A DNA stretch of 64,000 bases from Escherichia phage T2, in the sequence record NC_054931.1. One strand, 5' to 3'. Within the stretch, counting starts at the first letter, position 1; each line of letters opens with the position of its first letter. Below the pieces are notes generated by a model. It made no database searches, had not been told where the DNA came from, and saw nothing but the letters and a program-made list of their open reading frames with translations. The position numbers were made by a program, and so were the translations under genes. Of this stretch, positions 2,459-56,344 are shown piece by piece.

Positions 2459-4278
2459 TACTGGCTCATCCATTCTTTACGAAGGTCAGCATTATCTCCC
2501 ATGAGCATTTCAAAAAGCTCTTTCCAGTTCTCAGGAAGTTTAACAACATCATATACTGGATTTTGAATCATTTCACGATATTCAGATTTTTCCAAAGAGC
2601 CAAGTCCTTTAATATAACGGATGCTATGTTTAGGTAGAGCATCTTTGGCACTCTCATATTCAGCGACTGTATAAAACCATTCTTGTTTTTTACCGACCTG
2701 AGCGATGATTACAGGAGTTTTGACAAAGCGAATTCGTCCTTGCTCAAACAATTCTGGCCAATTACTAAAAAATCCGAGCAGAGAAGGATAAATGCTTCCT
2801 AGACCATCATGGTCAGCATCAGTCATAATAGCAATATTATGATAATTCAAGTTTTCAGCTTTTTCACCAAGAACTAGACCAGTGATTGCGCAAATATCAA
2901 ATAGTTCTTTGTTTTTAAGCATATCGGCATATGACATACCCCAGCTATTAAGAACTTTACCACGCAATGGATAACCACCATGAAGTTCTTTATCACGAAC
3001 ATCAATAAGATATCCGATAGCAGAATCACCCTCAGTCAAGAAAAGAGTAGTATCAGCATCTTTACCACAAAGATTCGCTTTGATATGTTTATGAACCTTA
3101 GCTTTAGAAGCTTTTTTAGCTGCCTTTGTCTCTGCTGCTTTTTCCGCCGCCAATTTACGAGCTAATGCTGCTTCAATAATTGGCATTAAAATTGCTTCAT
3201 TATTTAGAATAGCGCGTGAAATCTTTTTAGCATCAAGTTGAATATGACTACGAATTTCACCAAAAGGAGAAGTAAGTCGTTCTTTAGTTTGAGAGTCAAA
3301 TCGCATGTTTTTCATATCGCGAACAAACATAACGATAGTCAAACATTCTTTAACACGTGCTTTAGTTACATCAATTTTGAATTTACGTTTGATTTGTGGA
3401 ATAAGGTCTTCACAAATATCATCCATAACACAGTCAATATGATGGCCACCATTCTTAGTATGAATGTTATTGACGTACGTCAACTGACGAAAACCATCCG
3501 GTGAACGACCAACCGCAATAGAACAATTTTCTTGTTCTTGAACAATAGCATGTTCATCATACTGTCGTGCATATTTCTTAAAATTGCCCTGAACCTTTTT
3601 ACCATTAAAGGTAAATTGAATATCAGGATAAACTACAGCAAGCGTCTGGAGACGATCAAGTGTAATGTCAAGATAAACTTGGGACAGCTCATTAGTTTCA
3701 AATGACATAAAATCAGGAATGAAAGTAACACGAGTTCCTTTCCATTTTCCAGGAATATCTTCCCATGATTTATTTTCCATGCCATTTGAACAACGAACTA
3801 CAATATTATTTTGACCATCGCCAGTTTCACCGACAAACATCACAGAAAAAATGTTTGTCAAACTAGAACCAACACCATTCATACCACCGGTGACGCGTTC
3901 TTTATCATCACCAAAGTTACCACCTGCTTTTGGAATAGTCCATGCAGCAACTGGACCAGGAATTTCTTCACCAGTAGGTGTTTTAACCATCGCTTGTGGA
4001 ATACCACGACCGTTATCTTCAACTGTTACTTGATTGTTTTTAATAGTAACATTAATTTTATTTGCTAATTTAAACTTAGTACGAATACCTTCATCTACTG
4101 AGTTATCGATAATTTCATCAATAAGCTTAACAAGACCAGGTACATACTGAACACTTTCCCATTTACCAAACAGAAAGCGCTCATGCATTTCATTAGCAGA
4201 AGAGCCAATATACATGCCACTACGCTTTTTGATGTGTTCAATATCGCTCAGAATTTTAATTTCATTCTTAATCATCAC
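2458..4278 (-). CDS. 39: DNA topoisomerase II large subunit (GyrB-like ATPase), gene 39 with gene-60-equivalent C-terminus in one continuous ORF
   Basis: 606-aa ORF; N-terminus KKRSGMYIGSS typical of GyrB family; no interruption. Confidence 0.9.
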   Translation of the reverse strand: MMIKNEIKILSDIEHIKKRSGMYIGSSANEMHERFLFGKWESVQYVPGLVKLIDEIIDNSVDEGIRTKFKLANKINVTIKNNQVTVEDNGRGIPQAMVKTPTGEEIPGPVAAWTIPKAGGNFGDDKERVTGGMNGVGSSLTNIFSVMFVGETGDGQNNIVVRCSNGMENKSWEDIPGKWKGTRVTFIPDFMSFETNELSQVYLDITLDRLQTLAVVYPDIQFTFNGKKVQGNFKKYARQYDEHAIVQEQENCSIAVGRSPDGFRQLTYVNNIHTKNGGHHIDCVMDDICEDLIPQIKRKFKIDVTKARVKECLTIVMFVRDMKNMRFDSQTKERLTSPFGEIRSHIQLDAKKISRAILNNEAILMPIIEAALARKLAAEKAAETKAAKKASKAKVHKHIKANLCGKDADTTLFLTEGDSAIGYLIDVRDKELHGGYPLRGKVLNSWGMSYADMLKNKELFDICAITGLVLGEKAENLNYHNIAIMTDADHDGLGSIYPSLLGFFSNWPELFEQGRIRFVKTPVIIAQVGKKQEWFYTVAEYESAKDALPKHSIRYIKGLGSLEKSEYREMIQNPVYDVVKLPENWKELFEMLMGDNADLRKEWMSQ

Positions 4279-4327
4279 TTATCCTCGTTTGGTTTCGGGA
4301 ATATTATACTCCAATAATCATAAAGCT

Positions 4328-4345
4328 AAAGGCCCGAAGGCCTTT
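4328..4345 (-). terminator. C(UUCG)G-type stable hairpin (terminator or RNA-stability element) upstream of gene 39
   Basis: aaaggcc-cgaa-ggccttt inverted repeat; loop reads UUCG on minus transcript. Confidence 0.45.
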
Positions 4346-4614
4346 TATTTAAAACGGATAGTCGAATCTTTGAAGAATAAACCAGAACATACTGTTCCTT
4401 CTACTTTCTGCCCGGTAGGTCCAATAGCACGAAATCCAGTATGCTGGAAATCATTTTCAGAGCAACCAAACCAATTATATCCAGTGATTTCAATATTAGT
4501 AAAACCACTTGAAGACAAAACTTTTGTTGCATTATCAGCATCAGTACATCCTACTAAAGACACTGCTAATACTAATGCTGCGATAGAACGATTAATATAT
4601 TTCATAATTTTCAC
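4345..4614 (-). CDS. putative lipoprotein
   Basis: 89-aa ORF with signal peptide and lipobox-like LVGC. Confidence 0.45.
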   Translation of the reverse strand: MKIMKYINRSIAALVLAVSLVGCTDADNATKVLSSSGFTNIEITGYNWFGCSENDFQHTGFRAIGPTGQKVEGTVCSGLFFKDSTIRFK

Positions 4615-4662
4615 TTAAATTTAATGGCTTGAAGAAGACTAATAATTCTCAAGCGACTTCTT

Positions 4663-4980
4663 TCATCTAACTGTAAAAGAAAGAGGGTCACCAGATTTCA
4701 TAGTAATAGTACATTCAAAATCAAAATCTTCGGAAACTTCTTTGAAGAAGTCAAATTCTTCATCATAAATTAGAACATTACTCTGACAACTATGAAGAAT
4801 TTTTCCATCATTTCCAGATGCTGTACTAATCATTGTAACATTATGACCTTTCATATCTTCAACGATAAATTCACTAGTCAATATTACAGCATTAATAGAA
4901 CTATTCCTATTACTAGCAGAAAGTAGATATTTCTGTTCTTCACCTTCACGAATGCAATATTTCTTACCGATTTTAAACAT
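4663..4980 (-). CDS. hypothetical protein
   Basis: 105-aa ORF in minus-strand gene train. Confidence 0.4.
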   Translation of the reverse strand: MFKIGKKYCIREGEEQKYLLSASNRNSSINAVILTSEFIVEDMKGHNVTMISTASGNDGKILHSCQSNVLIYDEEFDFFKEVSEDFDFECTITMKSGDPLSFTVR

Positions 4981-4982
4981 AA

Positions 4983-5159
4983 TTACCCTTTAAGTAAGTC
5001 GTAAAAACCACCATTCACATGCTTAGGAGCAGAAGGCCGACGAGTAGACAAACGATGACATTTAGGGCAAACATCATTTTCTCGTTCAGAAATCTTTTTA
5101 ATTTTTTCATATTCATGCCCGCAATCTTCGGATTGGCATTTATAATCATACATTGGCAT
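4983..5159 (-). CDS. small zinc-ribbon protein (58 aa, CxxC...CxxC), below ORF-track cutoff
   Basis: manual translation MPMYDYKCQSEDCGHEYEKIKKISERENDVCPKCHRL...; SD aagga before ATG at 5159. Confidence 0.45.
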   Translation of the reverse strand: MPMYDYKCQSEDCGHEYEKIKKISERENDVCPKCHRLSTRRPSAPKHVNGGFYDLLKG

Positions 5160-5161
5160 AA

Positions 5162-5587
5162 TTATTCCTTAAAGTGTGCTTTCAGCATTTGATACAAGGA
5201 CCATGCCTGTTCATTATTTTCAATAGTAACTTTCATTACTGGGAATTCTGTGAAATCTTCTATTTGTTCTTGCTCTTTCTCTTCCTGCTCTTGCTCTTCA
5301 ACTGCCTGATATGGATTTTCCACTTCATCAAAGAACCCAGCTTCGTTAGTAGAAAGCCAGATAAAGTTTTCGTCAAGGATATCACCGTGTGTTGCATATC
5401 CAACTGTGCCAGTAGATGTCACAATTTTAGTAGGACGCCAAAGATAATCAACATCTAAAATTTTAAAAGGATGCATACCTAAACGGCGTGCATAGATTCC
5501 GTTATCAGTATGGTCTTTAATAAAATTTTCTTGAGCTTGTTTATTTTTAAATTGATACCATTTATTAACTTCAAATTTAATAGCCAT
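5162..5587 (-). CDS. hypothetical acidic protein (141 aa; matches goF position and length in T4 order)
   Basis: ORF; Glu-rich segment [12 protein letters not shown]; assignment by position only. Confidence 0.35.
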
Positions 5588-5802
5588 TAATAAATTTCCT
5601 TCCAGTAAGTTGTGCCATCTTCAGTAATTTCACGAAATACACCGTAAATTGGTTGTTTATCACCGACTTTCTCATACACATAAACCGAAGTCAAGTGAGT
5701 AAACTTGATGGTGTGTTCCTTTTGAACTACTACCAAATCTGGATCGAATAATACATCTTCAAATTCATCATTAGTGCAGTTCTGAACAATTTTACGTTTC
5801 AT
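5587..5802 (-). CDS. hypothetical protein (71 aa; cef-like position)
   Basis: ORF with ATGA overlap to downstream gene. Confidence 0.35.
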
Positions 5803-5815
5803 TATAATTTCCTCA

Positions 5816-6085
5816 TTAATTGAACAGTGGAGCGATACGTTTCAGAAGAGTAGCAGCACCTTTAGCGAATTTTACATCATGAAAAACAGTTTCTTCTTCT
5901 GTAACAATTCGAACTTTAATATTTTCACAATCCCAATTTTTGCGAACAATCTTCAAAAGCTGCAGTAAATCTTTACATTCAGCAATATCGATAACACATC
6001 CACGAGAATCTTCCATTATCGCACGATAACCATAAGCCATACCATAATCGTTGAAAGATTGCTCGATGATAATTAAGTTTTCCAT
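5816..6085 (-). CDS. hypothetical protein
   Basis: ORF; likely ATG at 6085 with SD ggag inside a conserved leader shared with the gene at 51677. Confidence 0.4.
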   Translation of the reverse strand: MENLIIIEQSFNDYGMAYGYRAIMEDSRGCVIDIAECKDLLQLLKIVRKNWDCENIKVRIVTEEETVFHDVKFAKGAATLLKRIAPLFN

Positions 6086-6183
6086 TTTATTCTCCAAGTT
6101 GTTTTCTGTATCAGTAGTTGATATTGATATAGTACCATAATCAACTACTGATGTATATAGTTTTATGAAAAAATTTTTAAACT

Positions 6184-6675
6184 TTATGCATAGCGAGCTT
6201 TGCTATAGTGTTTAATCCAGCTTTCAGGAATGACTTTGTATGTTCCTAAAAATACCGCGTTATATAACTTAACGCCATCTTCTACCCATTGATCAGTAAT
6301 GTATGCACACATAGCGCGAGTACGGTTAACAACCCCTTCCTCACCTTCAGTAAATTCAAACTCATAAGGAGCAACGAACTTAATGGCCTGACCGAGTTTC
6401 CACTTAAAGTCTACACCTACATGCGAAGTATCAATCGTTTCAATTCCTTTAGCGGGAACAGCTTTCAAAAACGCAGGCTCAAGAAATTTCCATCGAACAT
6501 AACCAAACTGAGGTTTAGACATTCCATCTTTAGGAATGATACGCACTTTTACTTCAGAATCTTCATCTTTAACACCATGTTTAAGCTGAATGCTTACAAC
6601 TTCAACCAATTTTCCTGCTGCTTTAGAACGGGATTTATCAGATACACGAGCAATTTCACCGATATTAATATTCAT
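6184..6675 (-). CDS. motB: MotB-like protein (by length and position)
   Basis: 163-aa ORF immediately before dexA in transcription order. Confidence 0.4.
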   Translation of the reverse strand: MNINIGEIARVSDKSRSKAAGKLVEVVSIQLKHGVKDEDSEVKVRIIPKDGMSKPQFGYVRWKFLEPAFLKAVPAKGIETIDTSHVGVDFKWKLGQAIKFVAPYEFEFTEGEEGVVNRTRAMCAYITDQWVEDGVKLYNAVFLGTYKVIPESWIKHYSKARYA

Positions 6676-50708: not shown

Positions 50709-51677
50709 TTATTTCAGAAGAGTAACCTCAGCGATTTCTTCCCAACCGTTTTTGTCGGTCATAATAAAGTCAGCAAGATAAAGAGCAGTACGCAGTGAAA
50801 CATTGCGTAAACGGTTAACATTGACTTTCATCCATGATAATGCTTTATAAGTTTCTTCATCAGAAAGACCGCGCTTTTGCATCATGTCAGTTGAAAGAAT
50901 AACATCTTCAACCCTGACCATAATTTCTTCATTAGTGTGAACACCCAAATCCAAATAAACTGAGCGGGACACTAATGCTTGTAAATGTGGAGCAAGTTTA
51001 GTACCACGGTCTAATTCGCGGTCAATGTCAACGTTTGTGATAAAAACAATCGTTCCTTTAAATTCAAACTCACGCTCAATGCCTTTTTCTTCTAAGTAAG
51101 AAGATGCAGTGCTCCAGCAGACTTTACGGGTCTCTCCAGTGTCCAGAGCAGCTTTCAGAAGATTAAGAATATCCATATCAGAGAAAACATCCACATCATC
51201 AATCAAAAGGACAGAATTCTCTTCACGATTATTCCAGAGCTGTTCATAAAGACCGATACCAGAGATTTTACCGTTAATGCTTTTATATTCAATGTATCCA
51301 ATATCATTTGCTTTATTTAAAGCTTTATCTAAAGAATACGTTTTACCAATACCTGCTGCTCCCGAGATAATTAATGAACGAATGTTTCCGTTAATAATAC
51401 CATTCGTCATCATTCCCATAACATTAAATCTTTTATTAATGCGGGTTTTCATATCTTCATATGATTCTTTAACTTCTTCAACTTTTACACCATCATATGA
51501 AATGTCTGATTTGTAAACCCAAACACCGCGACGTTTACCGTCAATTTCAACAAAAACTTTACCATCTCCTTGTGCATCTACCGGAGCATTATCTGGGAAC
51601 CATTCACCTAAGAGCTCAAAAGTTCCAGAGATTTCTTTACCGAAGTAGATACCCTTATTGATAGTTACAGTTTTCAT
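50709..51677 (-). CDS. AAA+-type ATPase with about 95-aa N-terminal extension
   Basis: Walker A ISGAAGIGKT, Walker B VLLIDDVD, sensor-1-like FITN; ATG at 51677 with SD ggag. Confidence 0.5.
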   Translation of the reverse strand: MKTVTINKGIYFGKEISGTFELLGEWFPDNAPVDAQGDGKVFVEIDGKRRGVWVYKSDISYDGVKVEEVKESYEDMKTRINKRFNVMGMMTNGIINGNIRSLIISGAAGIGKTYSLDKALNKANDIGYIEYKSINGKISGIGLYEQLWNNREENSVLLIDDVDVFSDMDILNLLKAALDTGETRKVCWSTASSYLEEKGIEREFEFKGTIVFITNVDIDRELDRGTKLAPHLQALVSRSVYLDLGVHTNEEIMVRVEDVILSTDMMQKRGLSDEETYKALSWMKVNVNRLRNVSLRTALYLADFIMTDKNGWEEIAEVTLLK

Positions 51678-51711
51678 TTTATTCTCCAAATCCGTATCAG
51701 TTGATAGTTGT

Positions 51712-51741: not shown

Positions 51742-51770
51742 CATTTTGTGAAAAATTTTTGAAATAAAAA

Positions 51771-51791
51771 AGGGGACCTCTAGGGCCCCCT
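51771..51791 (-). terminator. GC hairpin flanked by A and T runs (bidirectional terminator-like)
   Basis: aggggacc-tctag-ggccccct followed by ttt on plus and preceded by aaaaaa. Confidence 0.45.
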
Positions 51792-51799
51792 TTATGCTT

Positions 51800-52285
51800 T
51801 TATTCCATTTCTATTATATGCATGCTCTTTTTGCTATCAAAATATATGTTTTTAACTGTTAACTCCGAATTAATTGGCAATAAAAACTCTCTTTCATAAT
51901 CCACCATACAAAGATTATCATAAAGCTTATTAAGCTTATTATCATCAGTCTGGCTAGATTCTTCAATTGCGATTAAATTTTCTAAAATTTCAATCATAGC
52001 AGTTGAATAGTCAAAAACGTTTGCATTTTTTAACACTATTAAAACATTAGTCATATAGCGTTCTGCTGCAAATGTTTCAGCTATATGAGATTCACTACTA
52101 AAGGAAGTTATTCTTTTAAATTTGATTCTCCTATTAACTTCAAACTTATAAGATAGTACTTCCTCTATTGTAAGTCCTCTAAAAAGTACGTCTTTAATCT
52201 CAAGTTTGTCTTTAATGTAATCATTAACACGCTTATGATTAAAATCATTAATTTTGTTGCCAAGGCATTTCATTAAAATATGCAT
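51800..52285 (-). CDS. ModA/ModB-family mono-ADP-ribosyltransferase-like protein (third copy)
   Basis: R41 (VLFRG), SFSS at 66-68, E-R-E at 136-138; spacing R-to-S 25 residues as in ModA; aligns with ModA and ModB-like ORFs. Confidence 0.6.
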   Translation of the reverse strand: MHILMKCLGNKINDFNHKRVNDYIKDKLEIKDVLFRGLTIEEVLSYKFEVNRRIKFKRITSFSSESHIAETFAAERYMTNVLIVLKNANVFDYSTAMIEILENLIAIEESSQTDDNKLNKLYDNLCMVDYEREFLLPINSELTVKNIYFDSKKSMHIIEME

Positions 52286-52332
52286 TGTGTTTCTCTTCAA
52301 TTTTTAAAGAACAATTAATTAACTACAAATAT

Positions 52333-52362
52333 ATTATAATATGCTTTATGATAGAAGTAAAC
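52333..52362 (-). promoter_or_regulatory. T4-type early promoter for the ADP-ribosyltransferase-like gene
   Basis: attata 52333-52338, 18-bp spacer, gtaaac 52357-52362, UP-like aaaaatttttcacaaagttgtttac. Confidence 0.55.
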
Positions 52363-52392
52363 AACTTTGTGAAAAAATTTTTGAAATAAAAG

Positions 52393-52410
52393 GGGAGCCC
52401 GAAGGCTCCC
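52393..52410 (-). terminator. C(UUCG)G hairpin terminator
   Basis: gggagcc-cgaa-ggctccc perfect repeat; minus transcript has U-run after stem. Confidence 0.5.
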
Positions 52411-52412
52411 TA

Positions 52413-53426
52413 TCATTTATAATAACTTCGGTGGTTTTCAAGATAAACCTTCTCAAGGAAGTCATCCCAGAAACCCATGTCTACTTTTTGCTGCATACCG
52501 TTCTTAGAAGCTTCAGTAGATGCTGCTTCTACTTGATCGACCACATCTTCCAAAAACTCTTGAACCGTTTTAAATGGATGTTTACCCAACTTCACGTCGA
52601 GAATAAATGGAGCGTCTTGAAGTGGATAAACCAAGTCACCAGTTTTGTAAATTTCCAATAGTTGAAGTCCACCACGACAAGCATGGCTCAGAGCTTTCCA
52701 GTCAATGCCTTCGTTGGCTTCGGCCTTACGGGCACGTTCACCATATTCAGCATCTAATTTGTTCAGTGACTGCTTAAGCTCAATAAGAGAAAGCGTTGTC
52801 TGATATTTACGACCCAATACAGTGTAGAACGTTTGTGGGCCTGTTTTCTCATGATTATGGAACACCCATTCACAGAATTCGTTTTCTGGAAGACGATGCT
52901 TAATATCTTCAACTTTAGTACGACGCTGCTTAATAGAACCATCTTCTTGGTAATCAACCCATTGCTCGGGGATTTGATTAACTACTTTCAATACATCACG
53001 TAATGCAGCCAAACGAGAACCCTTGACACCGTATTTAGAAGCTTGCTTACGGACATATCCTAAATATGATTTCATGTTAGTCGTATAAAAACGAGAACGG
53101 TTGTCTTGAATAAACTTCCACACATCAGGCAAATCAGATTTAACCACTAGTTCAGGTTGAGTGTGAAGCATATCTAACGCTACAGTTTCACCATCTGCTG
53201 CTAATTTAAAGAAATATTTAAGACTGTATAGTTCATGGTCAATATCATCTTTAGTGTTTTTAGATGATGTGTTGTTAGTGTTTTTGCTCATGTGCTCTTT
53301 GACATTTCCGATAAGAATATCGCGAGCAGGAGGAACAAAAATTTCTTTAAAATCTACATCAGATTCTGGGGTAGAAGTTCCATAAAGATGACTACCAAAA
53401 TAGCTTTTCATTACTGTTTTCATCAT
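52413..53426 (-). CDS. Pol-beta superfamily nucleotidyltransferase
   Basis: 337-aa ORF; N-terminal GS-x9-SDVD motif (YFGSHLYGTSTPESDVDF) and downstream acidic DDIDHE. Confidence 0.55.
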   Translation of the reverse strand: MMKTVMKSYFGSHLYGTSTPESDVDFKEIFVPPARDILIGNVKEHMSKNTNNTSSKNTKDDIDHELYSLKYFFKLAADGETVALDMLHTQPELVVKSDLPDVWKFIQDNRSRFYTTNMKSYLGYVRKQASKYGVKGSRLAALRDVLKVVNQIPEQWVDYQEDGSIKQRRTKVEDIKHRLPENEFCEWVFHNHEKTGPQTFYTVLGRKYQTTLSLIELKQSLNKLDAEYGERARKAEANEGIDWKALSHACRGGLQLLEIYKTGDLVYPLQDAPFILDVKLGKHPFKTVQEFLEDVVDQVEAASTEASKNGMQQKVDMGFWDDFLEKVYLENHRSYYK

Positions 53427-53872
53427 TCAGCCTTATATTCAATAACAGGACATACTTTAGCTTTACGAACTTTTAAAAATTCAACGATAATCGATTTCTT
53501 AGGTTGAATAGGAGGTAAACCTTTATACGCCCTATCAATATTTTCTACGTGTAAAGCATAATCCTTTTTCCATTTATAATCTTTATATTTTTCACGCAAA
53601 TGTGCAGGAATAACAAATGAACCGATAATAAGTAAAACAACCAAAAGCGCAAGTATAAATGCCGATGGAAGAAGAGTCCATAAACTACCGAAAATAAGCC
53701 AACGTTGTAGGCTTTCTGCACAAATAATTGTTAGCCCTACGAGTATAGCACACCCAAAAATAGAAACGAAAAATGTAGGAGGCAATAGACCAAAAATATG
53801 CGCATAGTGTCTTAGGTCGTTGCCATTCATCGTTAAACAGTTTGAATAATTTATAGTGCCAAGAGTTTTCAT
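53423..53872 (-). CDS. membrane protein (2 predicted TM helices) translationally coupled to the nucleotidyltransferase
   Basis: 149-aa ORF; hydrophobic stretches IFGLLPPTFFVSIFGCAILVGLTIICA and LIFGSLWTLLPSAFILALLVVLLIIGSFVI; 4-nt overlap with NTase start. Confidence 0.5.
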   Translation of the reverse strand: MKTLGTINYSNCLTMNGNDLRHYAHIFGLLPPTFFVSIFGCAILVGLTIICAESLQRWLIFGSLWTLLPSAFILALLVVLLIIGSFVIPAHLREKYKDYKWKKDYALHVENIDRAYKGLPPIQPKKSIIVEFLKVRKAKVCPVIEYKAE

Positions 53873-53884
53873 TAATAATCATAA

Positions 53885-54403
53885 TTATCCTTTCATTGAA
53901 GGCGTAACGGTTGTTAAATACTTAATCATAGCTTCAGCTTCTGATTTTGATAATGAAATTTCTCCATTGTTTTGACGAATAGAAATAAAATCCGGATGAC
54001 GGTCACCACCAGCTTTTAAAACACATATAAGTATCAACTTCGCCTTCAATATTTGAAATGATTGAAGCAGTTCCACATGAATGCGGTTTTTGATAAATCA
54101 ATACAGCTTTTCTTCCACCGTTTGACTGTTCATAGGCTTTTAATACATCAAGCAAATCAGTTCTTTTATCAATAGCTAAAATGTTATTTTCATCTTCAAT
54201 GTTAAATCCTTCGGATACTTCATAAAGCGTTACCCATAAATCACCAATGTCAAAACAGCATTTACTTTTCCACGGCTTTCAAGAGTATGACAAATTTTCT
54301 TGATTTCGTCATAACTCATTTTAATAATATCATCTCCTTGACTAAGGAAGATGTCATTTTTAAATTCAACACGAATTAAACCACTTCCACTTGAAATAAA
54401 CAT
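53885..54403 (-). pseudogene. fragmented ORF (three frame segments), probable decayed gene
   Basis: good SD and ATG at 54403, then two frame switches before terminal 63-aa ORF; no intact ORF of 60 aa or more in 54077-54558. Confidence 0.35.
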
Positions 54404-54558
54404 ATTTCCTCACTTTGAAATCATAGTTGGAATAACAGAATCAAGATAAGTCTTTAGTGCAATAGCTTCGTCTTTGTTTAATGTAATGATATGCGATCGA
54501 AAATCGTCAATTTGACGAATAGATACTACATCTCCCTCTTCATAGCATTTTGAAACAT

Positions 54559-54852
54559 TTAAAATAGTTTCATCATTCTGATTACAGGAGTTAGTAATAA
54601 TAGCATTACATTTTTAAACCATTTTAAATTATGTTTTCTTTTAGTAGAATCATAAAAATATTTAATGTTAGTTATAAAATTATCCCAATTATTAATTGAT
54701 AAGCACATTGACTCGCTTTTAATATTAAATCCTGGGCATGAAGAATAAAAATGAATTTTATGCTCATCATTAATGCTTACAATTTTATCAGTGTAAGCAT
54801 ATTCAATTTGGGTTAAACGAACAATTTCACTAGGCGTAATATAACATATCAT
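54559..54852 (-). CDS. hypothetical protein, possibly 3' part of a frameshifted gene starting near 54960
   Basis: 97-aa ORF; upstream in-frame-shifted segment MSESKRINMKRL... Confidence 0.3.
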   Translation of the reverse strand: MICYITPSEIVRLTQIEYAYTDKIVSINDEHKIHFYSSCPGFNIKSESMCLSINNWDNFITNIKYFYDSTKRKHNLKWFKNVMLLLLTPVIRMMKLF

Positions 54853-55294
54853 CTTCTTGCGTCAAACGATACATGTTATTTACTTTTTCGATCGCTAATT
54901 CACCAAAAAGCACACTATCTTCTAATACTAATCGTTTCATATTGATTCTCTTCGACTCACTCATAATTACATACTCCTCTGAATCATATCAATAATGTTA
55001 TTCACCAAATTATAAGTAAACATTGGGTAATTATATTGAATCATCACATACACAACAAACAAAACTTTCATTCTCTTCTCCTTGGCAGTTGACAAGATTA
55101 CTATACCATAACCTTGCCAACTTGTAAACCATTAAATGACGTTTTCGATAAAATTCTGAAGCTTTGTATGAGCATCAACCATGATTTTCATTTCTTCTTT
55201 GGCGAAAGCTATACCTCTTTCACGAGAAGAACATTCATAGTCAGAAACTGCATTAGCATATTCTTCAATTAGCTTCATTAAAAACATCTGTTTT

Positions 55295-55489
55295 TCAGTT
55301 TTCATTATTCCACCTAATCATTTCAAGATATTGAACTAACTTAGCTTTAGATTTATCCAAATCCCTTTTAGCTGCTTCTATACCGTCGTATGAATATCCT
55401 TCACAATGCTCAACTGCTAATTGATATGAATCTATTTCAATATCACGTGCTAATTTAATGATTTTTTCAAACTGTTCACGTGTTAGCAT
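55295..55489 (-). CDS. hypothetical protein
   Basis: 64-aa ORF. Confidence 0.3.
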   Translation of the reverse strand: MLTREQFEKIIKLARDIEIDSYQLAVEHCEGYSYDGIEAAKRDLDKSKAKLVQYLEMIRWNNEN

Positions 55490-55491
55490 AA

Positions 55492-55710
55492 TTAAACTCT
55501 CGTATTATGATCGATAATTTCATCAAGAAACATATCTAACGCTTCTAAAGCATTATCAACTTTAGCTTCAAGTTCTTCAATACCTGATAAGGCAAAGTTA
55601 ATGCGTTCCTCATCTGCTTTACGAATTAAAGCTACCAATTCCTTAATTTTATCCGCTTGTTCGATACTAATCATTATTCCACCACATATGAAAGAGAGAA
55701 TATTGCACAC
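55492..55710 (-). CDS. hypothetical protein
   Basis: 72-aa ORF. Confidence 0.3.
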
Positions 55711-55862
55711 GCCATGTGAGTTGCAACTTCATCACACATATTATAACGTTTCTTGAGAAGTTCTACAAGTTCTTCACTAGTAACTTCATCCATGTCGACG
55801 AAAAAATCACCATTAATGATGACGTAGATATTTCCTTCTTGATTAAGTGCTTCAATTTTCAT
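55674..55862 (-). CDS. hypothetical protein
   Basis: ATG at 55862 with SD gaggag (MKIEALN...); track start lies in promoter. Confidence 0.35.
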
Positions 55863-55890
55863 GATGTTCTCCTCTTTATCCGATAGTTGT

Positions 55891-55920
55891 ATAGTACCAC
55901 AGCTCAAACGGAAAGTAAAC
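55891..55920 (-). promoter_or_regulatory. T4-type early promoter in repeated cassette
   Basis: gtaaac 55915-55920; shares gatagttgtatagtaccaca with other cassettes. Confidence 0.5.
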
Positions 55921-55936
55921 CGGTAAAATGAAAAAA

Positions 55937-55952
55937 GTCTCCCGAAGGAGAC
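55937..55952 (-). terminator. C(UUCG)G hairpin
   Basis: gtctcc-cgaa-ggagac perfect inverted repeat preceded by A-run. Confidence 0.45.
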
Positions 55953-55957
55953 TAATG

Positions 55958-56344
55958 TTATTCGAGGGAAAGAAGATACTTACTCTGGTAAAACATTCCA
56001 GTAATATCATCTATCGTGCTTTGGATGGCTGGAGGCATTTCTTTATAAATGCTGTTAGATTGGTCTAGTATGCGATCAATCATTTTAATTGTGTCGGTAG
56101 GAAGTTTACTGGCATCTGGAATTGAAGGTGTGTATTTTCTACCAGAATACCCCAAATATTGCTCACAAAATTTATCAATCAAATCTGGCAACTCGGAAAA
56201 AATAAAATCGTATGCTTTGTGTCTAGCATAACTTTTAGTTTCAAAATGTGCAGAATGAAAATAAGCTTGTGCAGCCATTAATAAACCTAAGTATTCATCT
56301 GCCTTTGAAGGTTTTCCACTTTGTGAAAAGTCGCTGAATTTCAT
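55958..56344 (-). CDS. hypothetical protein (rI.-1 position)
   Basis: 128-aa ORF overlapping rI stop. Confidence 0.4.

Follow-up and report, generated by a model that had tools for sequence, protein, structure and literature searches.

Here, we analysed a pair of overlapping genes at positions 52413-53872 of a 64,000-nucleotide stretch of the Escherichia phage T2 genome (sequence record NC_054931.1; this whole stretch is called the window in the following, and positions are counted within it). Both genes are read from the minus strand. An open reading frame (ORF) of 149 codons with two predicted transmembrane (TM) helices (53423..53872) runs into the start of a 337-codon ORF (52413..53426) that carries the signature of a nucleotidyltransferase (NTase). 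We found that the 337-aa ORF is the T2 ortholog of T4 nrdC.11 and encodes an NTase of the RlaP family, and that the 149-aa ORF is not an intact gene but a disrupted copy of a family of phage membrane proteins. The two do not form a conserved two-gene module. What looks like an operon of a membrane protein and an NTase is an accident of gene order, in which the membrane half has been damaged by a frameshift in T2. As a joint explanation of the locus, we consider it likely that NrdC.11 takes part in RlaP-type repair of RNA ends and that the frameshifted membrane gene is an unrelated neighbour. The locus itself is ordinary and already catalogued, and it does not represent a new two-gene system.

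NrdC.11 is an RlaP-family nucleotidyltransferase

The assignment of the 337-aa ORF rests on several concordant matches. Its product hits the Pfam family RlaP (PF10127) at residues 7-135 with 40.7 bits (gathering score, 23; E=2.9e-10) and phrog_388, described as "nucleotidyltransferase", with E=5.9e-136; these profile searches keep the ORF within an NTase family, as had been proposed from the letters of the sequence in a first-pass annotation. The protein is 98% identical to T4 NrdC.11 (NP_049709), for which RefSeq also gives nucleotidyltransferase as annotation. By tblastn, nrdC.11 is found in 1,516 phage records, and PF10127 is precomputed for nearly all NrdC.11 homologs. A match of nrdC.11 orthologs to the nucleotidyltransferase group COG3541 was published as early as 2006 (PMC1524935). 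Neither the assignment as an NTase nor the membership in RlaP is therefore new, and the expectation of the first-pass annotation that equivalent genes might sit unannotated in T4-like genomes turned out to be wrong. The same holds for its view that the subfamily could not be resolved: the ORF resolves as RlaP/PF10127, i.e. nrdC.11, and PADLOC returned no match.

RlaP stands for RNA-ligase-associated Pol-beta, a name that goes back to Burroughs and Aravind according to passages in PMC7824862 and PMC12776372. The latter, a preprint of December 2025, places "T4NrdC.11" in cluster 5 of a similarity network of PF10127. It further reports that two RlaPs from Pseudomonas add 1-2 nucleoside monophosphates (NMPs) to the 3'-OH of RNA with a preference for Mn2+, DNA and protein not being substrates, and that these enzymes consist of an NTase domain and a helical domain and possess three strictly conserved aspartates (PMC12776372). 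In the crystal structure of PfRlaP, the C-terminal helical domain and the NTase domain together form a conserved basic cleft (PMC12776372).

The N-terminus of NrdC.11 indeed reads G11 S12 HLYGTSTPE S22 D23 V24 D25, the GS-x9-SDVD signature on which the first-pass annotation had built its case. Nine phage orthologs, the most distant with 29% identity, all retain G11, S12, D23, D25 and D63. In a wider set of 119 homologs, reaching down to 24% identity, invariance extends to G11, S22, D23, D63, K244, H248 and R251, while S12 and D25 are conserved in at least 90% of the sequences. The acidic residues of the motif are thus retained among homologs, and D63 provides the third catalytic acid that was missing from the initial reading. 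Taken together, NrdC.11 displays the whole Pol-beta signature, hG[GS] plus DxD plus a third aspartate.

An AlphaFold2 model computed from the alignment of the 119 homologs reached a predicted local distance difference test score (pLDDT) of 92.2. Its N-terminal part is an alpha/beta NTase domain; the C-domain is helical and contains the invariant K244, H248 and R251, and an extra beta-rich segment is seen at approximately residues 155-209. The motif residues are found at the junction of strand 3-10 and helix 12-15, at the start of strand 24-31 and in strand 62-68. HalB, 3c18, a HEPN-associated NTase, KNT and LinB are the closest solved folds among the structural matches listed, and cGAS, OAS or CD-NTases do not occur among those matches. 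The modelled fold resembles the small Pol-beta NTases and not cGAS or CD-NTases. At the sequence level, no relatives were found in the PDB, neither with NrdC.11 nor with its 119-sequence profile.

Other identities offered by the signature were tried and rejected. A CD-NTase, CBASS or other defence NTase is contradicted by PADLOC, which gave no match, and by the structural matches listed, which contain no cGAS, OAS or CD-NTase. For an enzyme of the MNT/AbiEii type, the NCBIfam model MntA reached 13.3 bits where its cut-off is 60, with PADLOC again empty; the genes adjoining nrdC.11 are the remnant of the membrane gene and an ADP-ribosyltransferase cassette, where this type has a HEPN or AbiEi partner. 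No Pfam family of the CCA-adding or poly(A) polymerase type was matched either, the sole other NTase hit being PF01909 with E=0.095.

Database names at this locus deserve some caution. NrdC.11 is called 'thioredoxin' in many GenBank/UniRef records and 'putative HNH homing endonuclease' in one, and the T2 149-aa ORF carries the name 'prohead core protein' in AP018813/UniProt. All these labels are errors of name propagation.

A frameshifted membrane gene that is not a conserved partner of nrdC.11

The two membrane spans noted in the first-pass annotation are present in the 149-aa ORF, at approximately residues 25-56 and 58-94 (Kyte-Doolittle, 19-residue window, threshold 1.6), and are followed by a C-terminal tail with a net charge of +7. 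The gene as a whole is not what it seemed, since the ORF is a frameshift chimera. It matches phrog_944 with residues 32-148 only (6e-26), compared to residues 1-152 of the 153-aa ortholog in RB14 (2.4e-49). DNA alignments of T2, RB14 and UFV-AREG1 made with MAFFT locate the lesion between positions 53781 and 53780: where RB14-type phages read TTGCC[AT]TCC, the AT following nucleotide 102 of the ancestral ORF is deleted in T2. As a result of this 2-nt deletion, the conserved N-terminus of the family, MIINENSWHYKLFKLFNDEWQRPKTLCAYFW, lies in another frame, in a 65-aa ORF at 53685..53882 on the minus strand, which emerged from the ORF list and from the alignment with the family members P0124, P0125 and P0132. 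Its first 34 residues, MIINENSWHYKLFKLFNDEWQRPKTLCAYFWSIA, are the conserved family N-terminus, after which 31 residues are read out of frame up to a stop codon. In the 149-aa ORF, residues ~1-31 stem from the alternative frame, and residues ~32-149 comprise the two TM helices and the C-terminal tail of the family. A hidden Markov model built from 56 diverse members is accordingly split over two T2 frames, with positions 1-45 in 53688-53921 and positions 37-156 in 53426-53878.

Could the T2 ORF nevertheless be a genuine, expressed variant with a new N-terminus, translated from its own ATG at 53872 and coupled into nrdC.11? It starts with ATG, runs uninterrupted, retains both TM helices and the conserved C-terminal KKSIIVEFLK-RKAKVCPVIEYKAE, and is entered as a coding sequence in several T2 records. 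Moreover, UFV-AREG1 carries an independent frameshift allele, an additional T in a run of T, in which the same frame is still open from the same ATG. However, RB14, whose gene is intact, already has 45 open codons in the alternative frame, counted from the very ATG that starts the 149-aa ORF, so any -2/+1 shift in this region yields an intact-looking ORF by chance. The Shine-Dalgarno-like AAAGGA at 53888..53893 (minus strand), read from the sequence and putatively the ribosome-binding site, precedes the ancestral ATG (53882) by 5 nt and the alternative one by 15 nt.

The conservation within the family speaks against such a variant as well. This widespread family comprises 749 clusters at 50% identity. 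Its invariant positions are M1, C27, Y29, K143, C145 and P146, with S7, W8, H9, L26 and A139 close to invariance; S7, W8, H9, L26, C27 and Y29, six of these eleven positions, are missing from the T2 ORF. Full-length phrog_944 members combine an N-terminal S-W-H ... L-C-x-Y with a C-terminal K-x-C-P, a combination not found in the T2 ORF. According to the AlphaFold2 model of the intact protein (pLDDT 93), the chain begins with a strand and a helix, continues with two long TM helices and two helices on the cytoplasmic side, and closes with a strand at the C-terminus; the frameshift eliminates the first strand and helix. The cluster of the intact 153-aa form holds 543 member sequences versus 2-3 for the T2-type forms. 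Further truncated alleles exist in the family (P0126-P0131), which together with a fragmented neighbouring gene in T2 fits a local decay. Inspection of the deletion site, made by eye only, revealed no canonical slippery heptamer that would permit a rescue by programmed frameshifting. On balance, we regard an expressed variant as unlikely. According to the explanation we prefer, ribosomes would start at the well-positioned ancestral ATG and make a 65-aa truncated product, and the 149-aa frame would owe its intact look to nothing but the chance openness of the alternative frame. Judging from its sequence, we infer that the T2 membrane ORF is non-functional.

Little can be said about the family from databases. 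Searches of intact members against Pfam, NCBIfam and PADLOC gave only sub-threshold noise, no PDB match was obtained for the family, and its structural relatives in BFVD are exclusively uncharacterised phage proteins. The invariant C27 and C145 and the near-invariant H9 (alignment A5, e.g. P0124; RB14 L003:2491-2952) flank both predicted TM helices and might form a small metal-binding site.

Do the membrane gene and nrdC.11 nonetheless belong together outside T2? To answer this question, we considered the pairing from the NTase side, in 78 IMG/VR loci with a NrdC.11 homolog and in 11 further distinct contexts (L091-L107) whose members are 31-38% identical, and by tblastn with distant members of the membrane family. 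Where NrdC.11 is at least 75% identical to that of T2, the two genes abut with the 4-nt overlap in 12 of 15 loci. At 60-74% identity a membrane-family member is present in all 24 loci and abuts in none of them, being 0.4-1.8 kb away with other genes in between. The family is found in 5/14 loci at 50-59% identity, in 2/25 below 50%, and near none of the NTases in the 11 distant contexts. In T4 the slot is taken by mobD, a gene for an HNH homing endonuclease, and no member of the family occurs in the 44-58 kb region; in RB14, the membrane ORF is annotated with the remark 'replaces mobD'. An endonuclease gene separates the membrane gene from nrdC.11 in a Mosigvirus, and in Aeromonas phage CC2, taking the contig L076 as its genome, the two are more than 75 kb apart. 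The genes are neighbours because of how this hyperplastic region of T-even genomes is locally arranged.

The 4-nt overlap itself is real, as the first-pass annotation had stated. It reads GAATGATGAAA, with ATGA common to the TGA stop codon of the 149-aa ORF and the first ATG of nrdC.11. Most databases annotate a 336-aa form, which starts at a second in-frame ATG (53423..53421) 3 nt further downstream; this ATG overlaps the stop codon of the 149-aa ORF by 1 nt. A Shine-Dalgarno-like AAGG at 53431..53434 on the minus strand, visible in the sequence and presumed to function as such, is spaced 4 nt from the first ATG and 7 nt from the second. Because of the latter spacing, initiation on nrdC.11 is probably independent of the upstream ORF and would need no help from its translation.

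These distributions bear directly on the proposal of the first-pass annotation that a membrane protein and an NTase could constitute a functional signalling, exclusion or anti-defence module. Analogies would be Hailong and CBASS-like nucleotide signalling to a membrane effector. The idea of such a module is largely refuted by the distribution of the genes, with mobD in the slot in T4, adjacency confined to phages whose NrdC.11 is at least 75% identical, and the family missing from the distant contexts; we consider it very improbable. Hailong came into consideration through HalB, which ranks first among the fold matches of NrdC.11. We rejected the analogy, as there is no sequence similarity, the membrane family is not similar to HalA and the pairing is not conserved. 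A related idea is that in Tequatrovirus and Mosigvirus the intact membrane protein was ancestrally linked in function to NrdC.11, for instance as a membrane-anchored regulator or sensor of an NTase that makes a nucleotide-based signal as HalB does. We give this idea hardly any credit; if it were true, the frameshift in T2 and the replacement by mobD in T4 would be natural knockouts of the regulator.

Gene contexts and a possible role in RNA-end repair

What might NrdC.11 do? Among the functions listed in the first-pass annotation was RNA repair, and this is the reading we favour. Most probably, as deduced from the characterised bacterial RlaPs, D23, D25 and D63 bind two divalent metals, and NrdC.11 would transfer one or two NMPs from nucleoside triphosphates onto the 3'-OH of a damaged RNA. 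One such substrate could be a tRNA half from which an RloC-type anticodon nuclease has removed the wobble nucleotide. T-even Pnkp generates 3'-OH ends, and Rnl1 joins a 3'-OH to a 5'-phosphate. The rebuilt end might then be healed and sealed by the phage Pnkp and Rnl1, so that a functional tRNA is religated. RlaP products were described as chemically compatible with 5'-phosphate RNA ligases (PMC12776372). If NrdC.11 rebuilds RloC-trimmed tRNA ends in this manner, it would complete the classic tRNA-repair counter-defence of T4 by Pnkp and Rnl1. A role of NrdC.11 in countering RloC has already been proposed by others, and the contexts found here add modest support to it.

A striking one among these contexts is a metagenomic viral contig (L071:991-6311), whose NTase (5319-6311) is 46% identical to T2 NrdC.11 and matches RlaP with E=9e-16. 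A gene for an AAA_33 kinase (4913-5332) overlaps the start of the NTase gene and is itself preceded by a metallophosphoesterase gene (4082-4630). An Rnl1-type ligase (991-2169) is encoded 3 kb upstream, followed by a gene of the membrane family (2304-2744) and ThyX, and a deoxynucleoside monophosphate kinase gene comes after the NTase. This looks like a compact RNA-repair-like gene set. When the fetched loci were searched with T4 Pnkp and Rnl1 by tblastn and with the kinase, phosphoesterase and ligase of this contig by jackhmmer, only the contig itself was recovered, plus a cut metallophosphoesterase in L089.

Suggestive partners also appear in the more distant contexts. In L091-94, an RNA ligase of PF09414 is encoded 0.6 kb upstream of the NTase. 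In two independent contigs (L101:3378-4984 and L102:3471-4993), the NTase gene starts within the last 4 nt of a gene for an HD-domain phosphohydrolase (PF13328/PF01966); NTase and HD domains are likewise combined in bacterial CCA-adding enzymes. Thg1 is encoded at most 4 kb from the NTase in L106 and L107, and an AAA_33 kinase 4 kb upstream of it in L104. These contexts of the distant members, with kinase, HD phosphohydrolase, RNA ligase and Thg1 as neighbours, lend modest support to a role of the clade in healing and extending RNA ends. Tandem RlaP genes of 327 and 259 aa occur beside YjbR and zf-CHCC in L098:5001-6760 and also in L099 and L100; the surroundings of these paralogs resemble a bacterial chromosome.

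Several observations weigh against this explanation. In T4, pseT and rnlA are located ~80 kb from nrdC.11; neither in T2 nor in T4 is nrdC.11 placed beside RNA-repair genes, and only 1 of the 78 IMG/VR loci has a ligase near the homolog. The commonest neighbours in distant T4-like phages belong to the salvage of nicotinamide adenine dinucleotide (NAD) and not to RNA repair. The Pfam match covers no more than residues 7-135 of NrdC.11, the characterised RlaPs fall in similarity cluster 1a and NrdC.11 in cluster 5, and with enzymology known for the Pseudomonas RlaPs only, the activity of the phage enzyme is a prediction. As for the membrane gene, a family member is encoded upstream and on the same strand in 45/78 loci, so a weak functional linkage is formally possible. 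Furthermore, the independent frameshift alleles of T2 and UFV-AREG1 both leave the TM and C-terminal part readable, and the 149-aa ORF could conceivably be translated from the alternative ATG.

Some of these points can be read in favour of another function, in which NrdC.11 is an active NTase on a substrate other than damaged tRNA, be it another RNA, a nucleotide-derived molecule in a counter-defence acting on NAD or the nucleotide pool, or the synthesis of oligonucleotides. Besides the separation from RNA-repair genes, the restriction of the Pfam match to the catalytic core and the separate cluster of the phage clade, HalB, the closest solved fold, makes oligo-dA. A gene for a ModB-like, NAD-dependent ADP-ribosyltransferase lies directly downstream of nrdC.11 in T2, and among 39 loci, NMN-adenylyltransferase/NUDIX (NMN, nicotinamide mononucleotide) was counted in 11 and NAMPT in 9, with nrdC.11 between them at a distance of ~1-4 kb (L049-L069, L073, L078). 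However, these NAD genes are 1.2-4 kb off, with intervening genes, and come from few syntenic lineages, and the ADP-ribosyltransferase gene of T2 has a promoter-like site and a terminator of its own. By comparison, the partners that overlap the NTase gene tightly are RNA-end-healing enzymes, namely the AAA_33 kinase and the HD phosphohydrolases, with RNA ligases and Thg1 nearby, and the characterised RlaPs act on RNA rather than on DNA or protein. We therefore read the NAD-gene neighbours as regional synteny, keep them as a rival lead and hold a substrate other than damaged tRNA to be rather improbable. An SPFH/Band-7 gene recurs in 8 loci.

Locus layout and comparison with known systems

A 2.5-kb query covering 51700-54200 matches six T2/SV76 records at 100% identity, and neither nrdC.11 nor the membrane gene has a second copy within the window. 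Two bases past the stop codon of nrdC.11, a hairpin resembling an intrinsic terminator, GGGAGCC-TTCG-GGCTCCC followed by CTTTTATTT, is located at 52393..52410 (minus strand). It was picked up by a terminator scan that yielded 7 sites versus 1.8 expected in shuffles, and its terminator-like make-up suggests that it marks the end of the nrdC.11 transcription unit. A motif scan for the T4 late promoter TATAAATA found no match anywhere in 52300-56100. The only strict match to the MotA box, at 55554, is ~1.7 kb upstream of the ORF pair, and otherwise there is only a poor candidate at 53558.

Downstream, between nrdC.11 and nrdC.10, is the 166-aa gene of the ModB-like ADP-ribosyltransferase (51800..52300, minus strand), which matches phrog_832 with E=1e-23 and gave no match in Pfam. 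It is bracketed by a promoter-like site at 52361..52333 and a terminator at 51793..51769, and T4 has no counterpart at this place; these features make it look like a self-contained moron cassette. nrdC.10 (326 aa; 50709..51689, minus strand) matches phrog_1250, of unknown function, over its full length and shows sub-threshold similarity to AAA_14 (E=6e-5) and nSTAND3 (E=5e-4) of the AAA/STAND-NTPase type.

Upstream of the membrane gene, a y05I/mobD.1-like gene (PF24449 + PF24448, phrog_1502), which is intact with 173 aa in RB14, is broken into three ORF fragments in T2 (53888..54403, minus strand), and an N-truncated second copy is situated just upstream (54562..54852, minus strand). This broken gene beside the frameshifted membrane gene indicates a local decay of this stretch of T2, in which nrdC.11 stays intact. 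In a genome-reduction study, T4 mutants lacking a large fragment from nrdC.11 to mobD.3 were viable (PMC9825161).

Finally, we compared the locus with known systems. The defining arrangement of Hailong, a HalB-like NTase and a HalA-like channel in a conserved two-gene operon, is not seen here. HalB (PDB 9dbh/9dbj) shares 16% identity with NrdC.11 without a match at the sequence level, has ~217 aa and lacks the C-terminal domain of NrdC.11. In Hailong, the oligo-dA made by HalB gates the membrane channel HalA, to which the phage membrane family bears no similarity. Within its own family, phrog_944/RB32ORF096c/RB69ORF104c, the T2 copy differs by its frameshift and by the loss of the SWHY...LCxYFW motif that the family conserves at its N-terminus. 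In T4, nrdC.11 (NP_049709; PF10127/COG3541/phrog_388) occupies the same genomic place as in T2, with the tk/rI block on one side and nrdC.10 on the other. The two phages differ upstream, with mobD in T4 and the frameshifted membrane gene in T2, and downstream, where T2 has the extra ADP-ribosyltransferase cassette between nrdC.11 and nrdC.10.

From the bacterial RlaPs of RtcB operons (Pseudomonas fluorescens, P. aeruginosa), the phage NrdC.11 differs by its placement in cluster 5 instead of 1a, by its extra beta-rich segment and by not being part of an RtcB/RtcA operon. With these enzymes it shares the Pfam family and the three aspartates; its model suggests a comparable arrangement of NTase and helical domains, and their linkage to ligases and end-healing enzymes is matched by some members of the phage clade.

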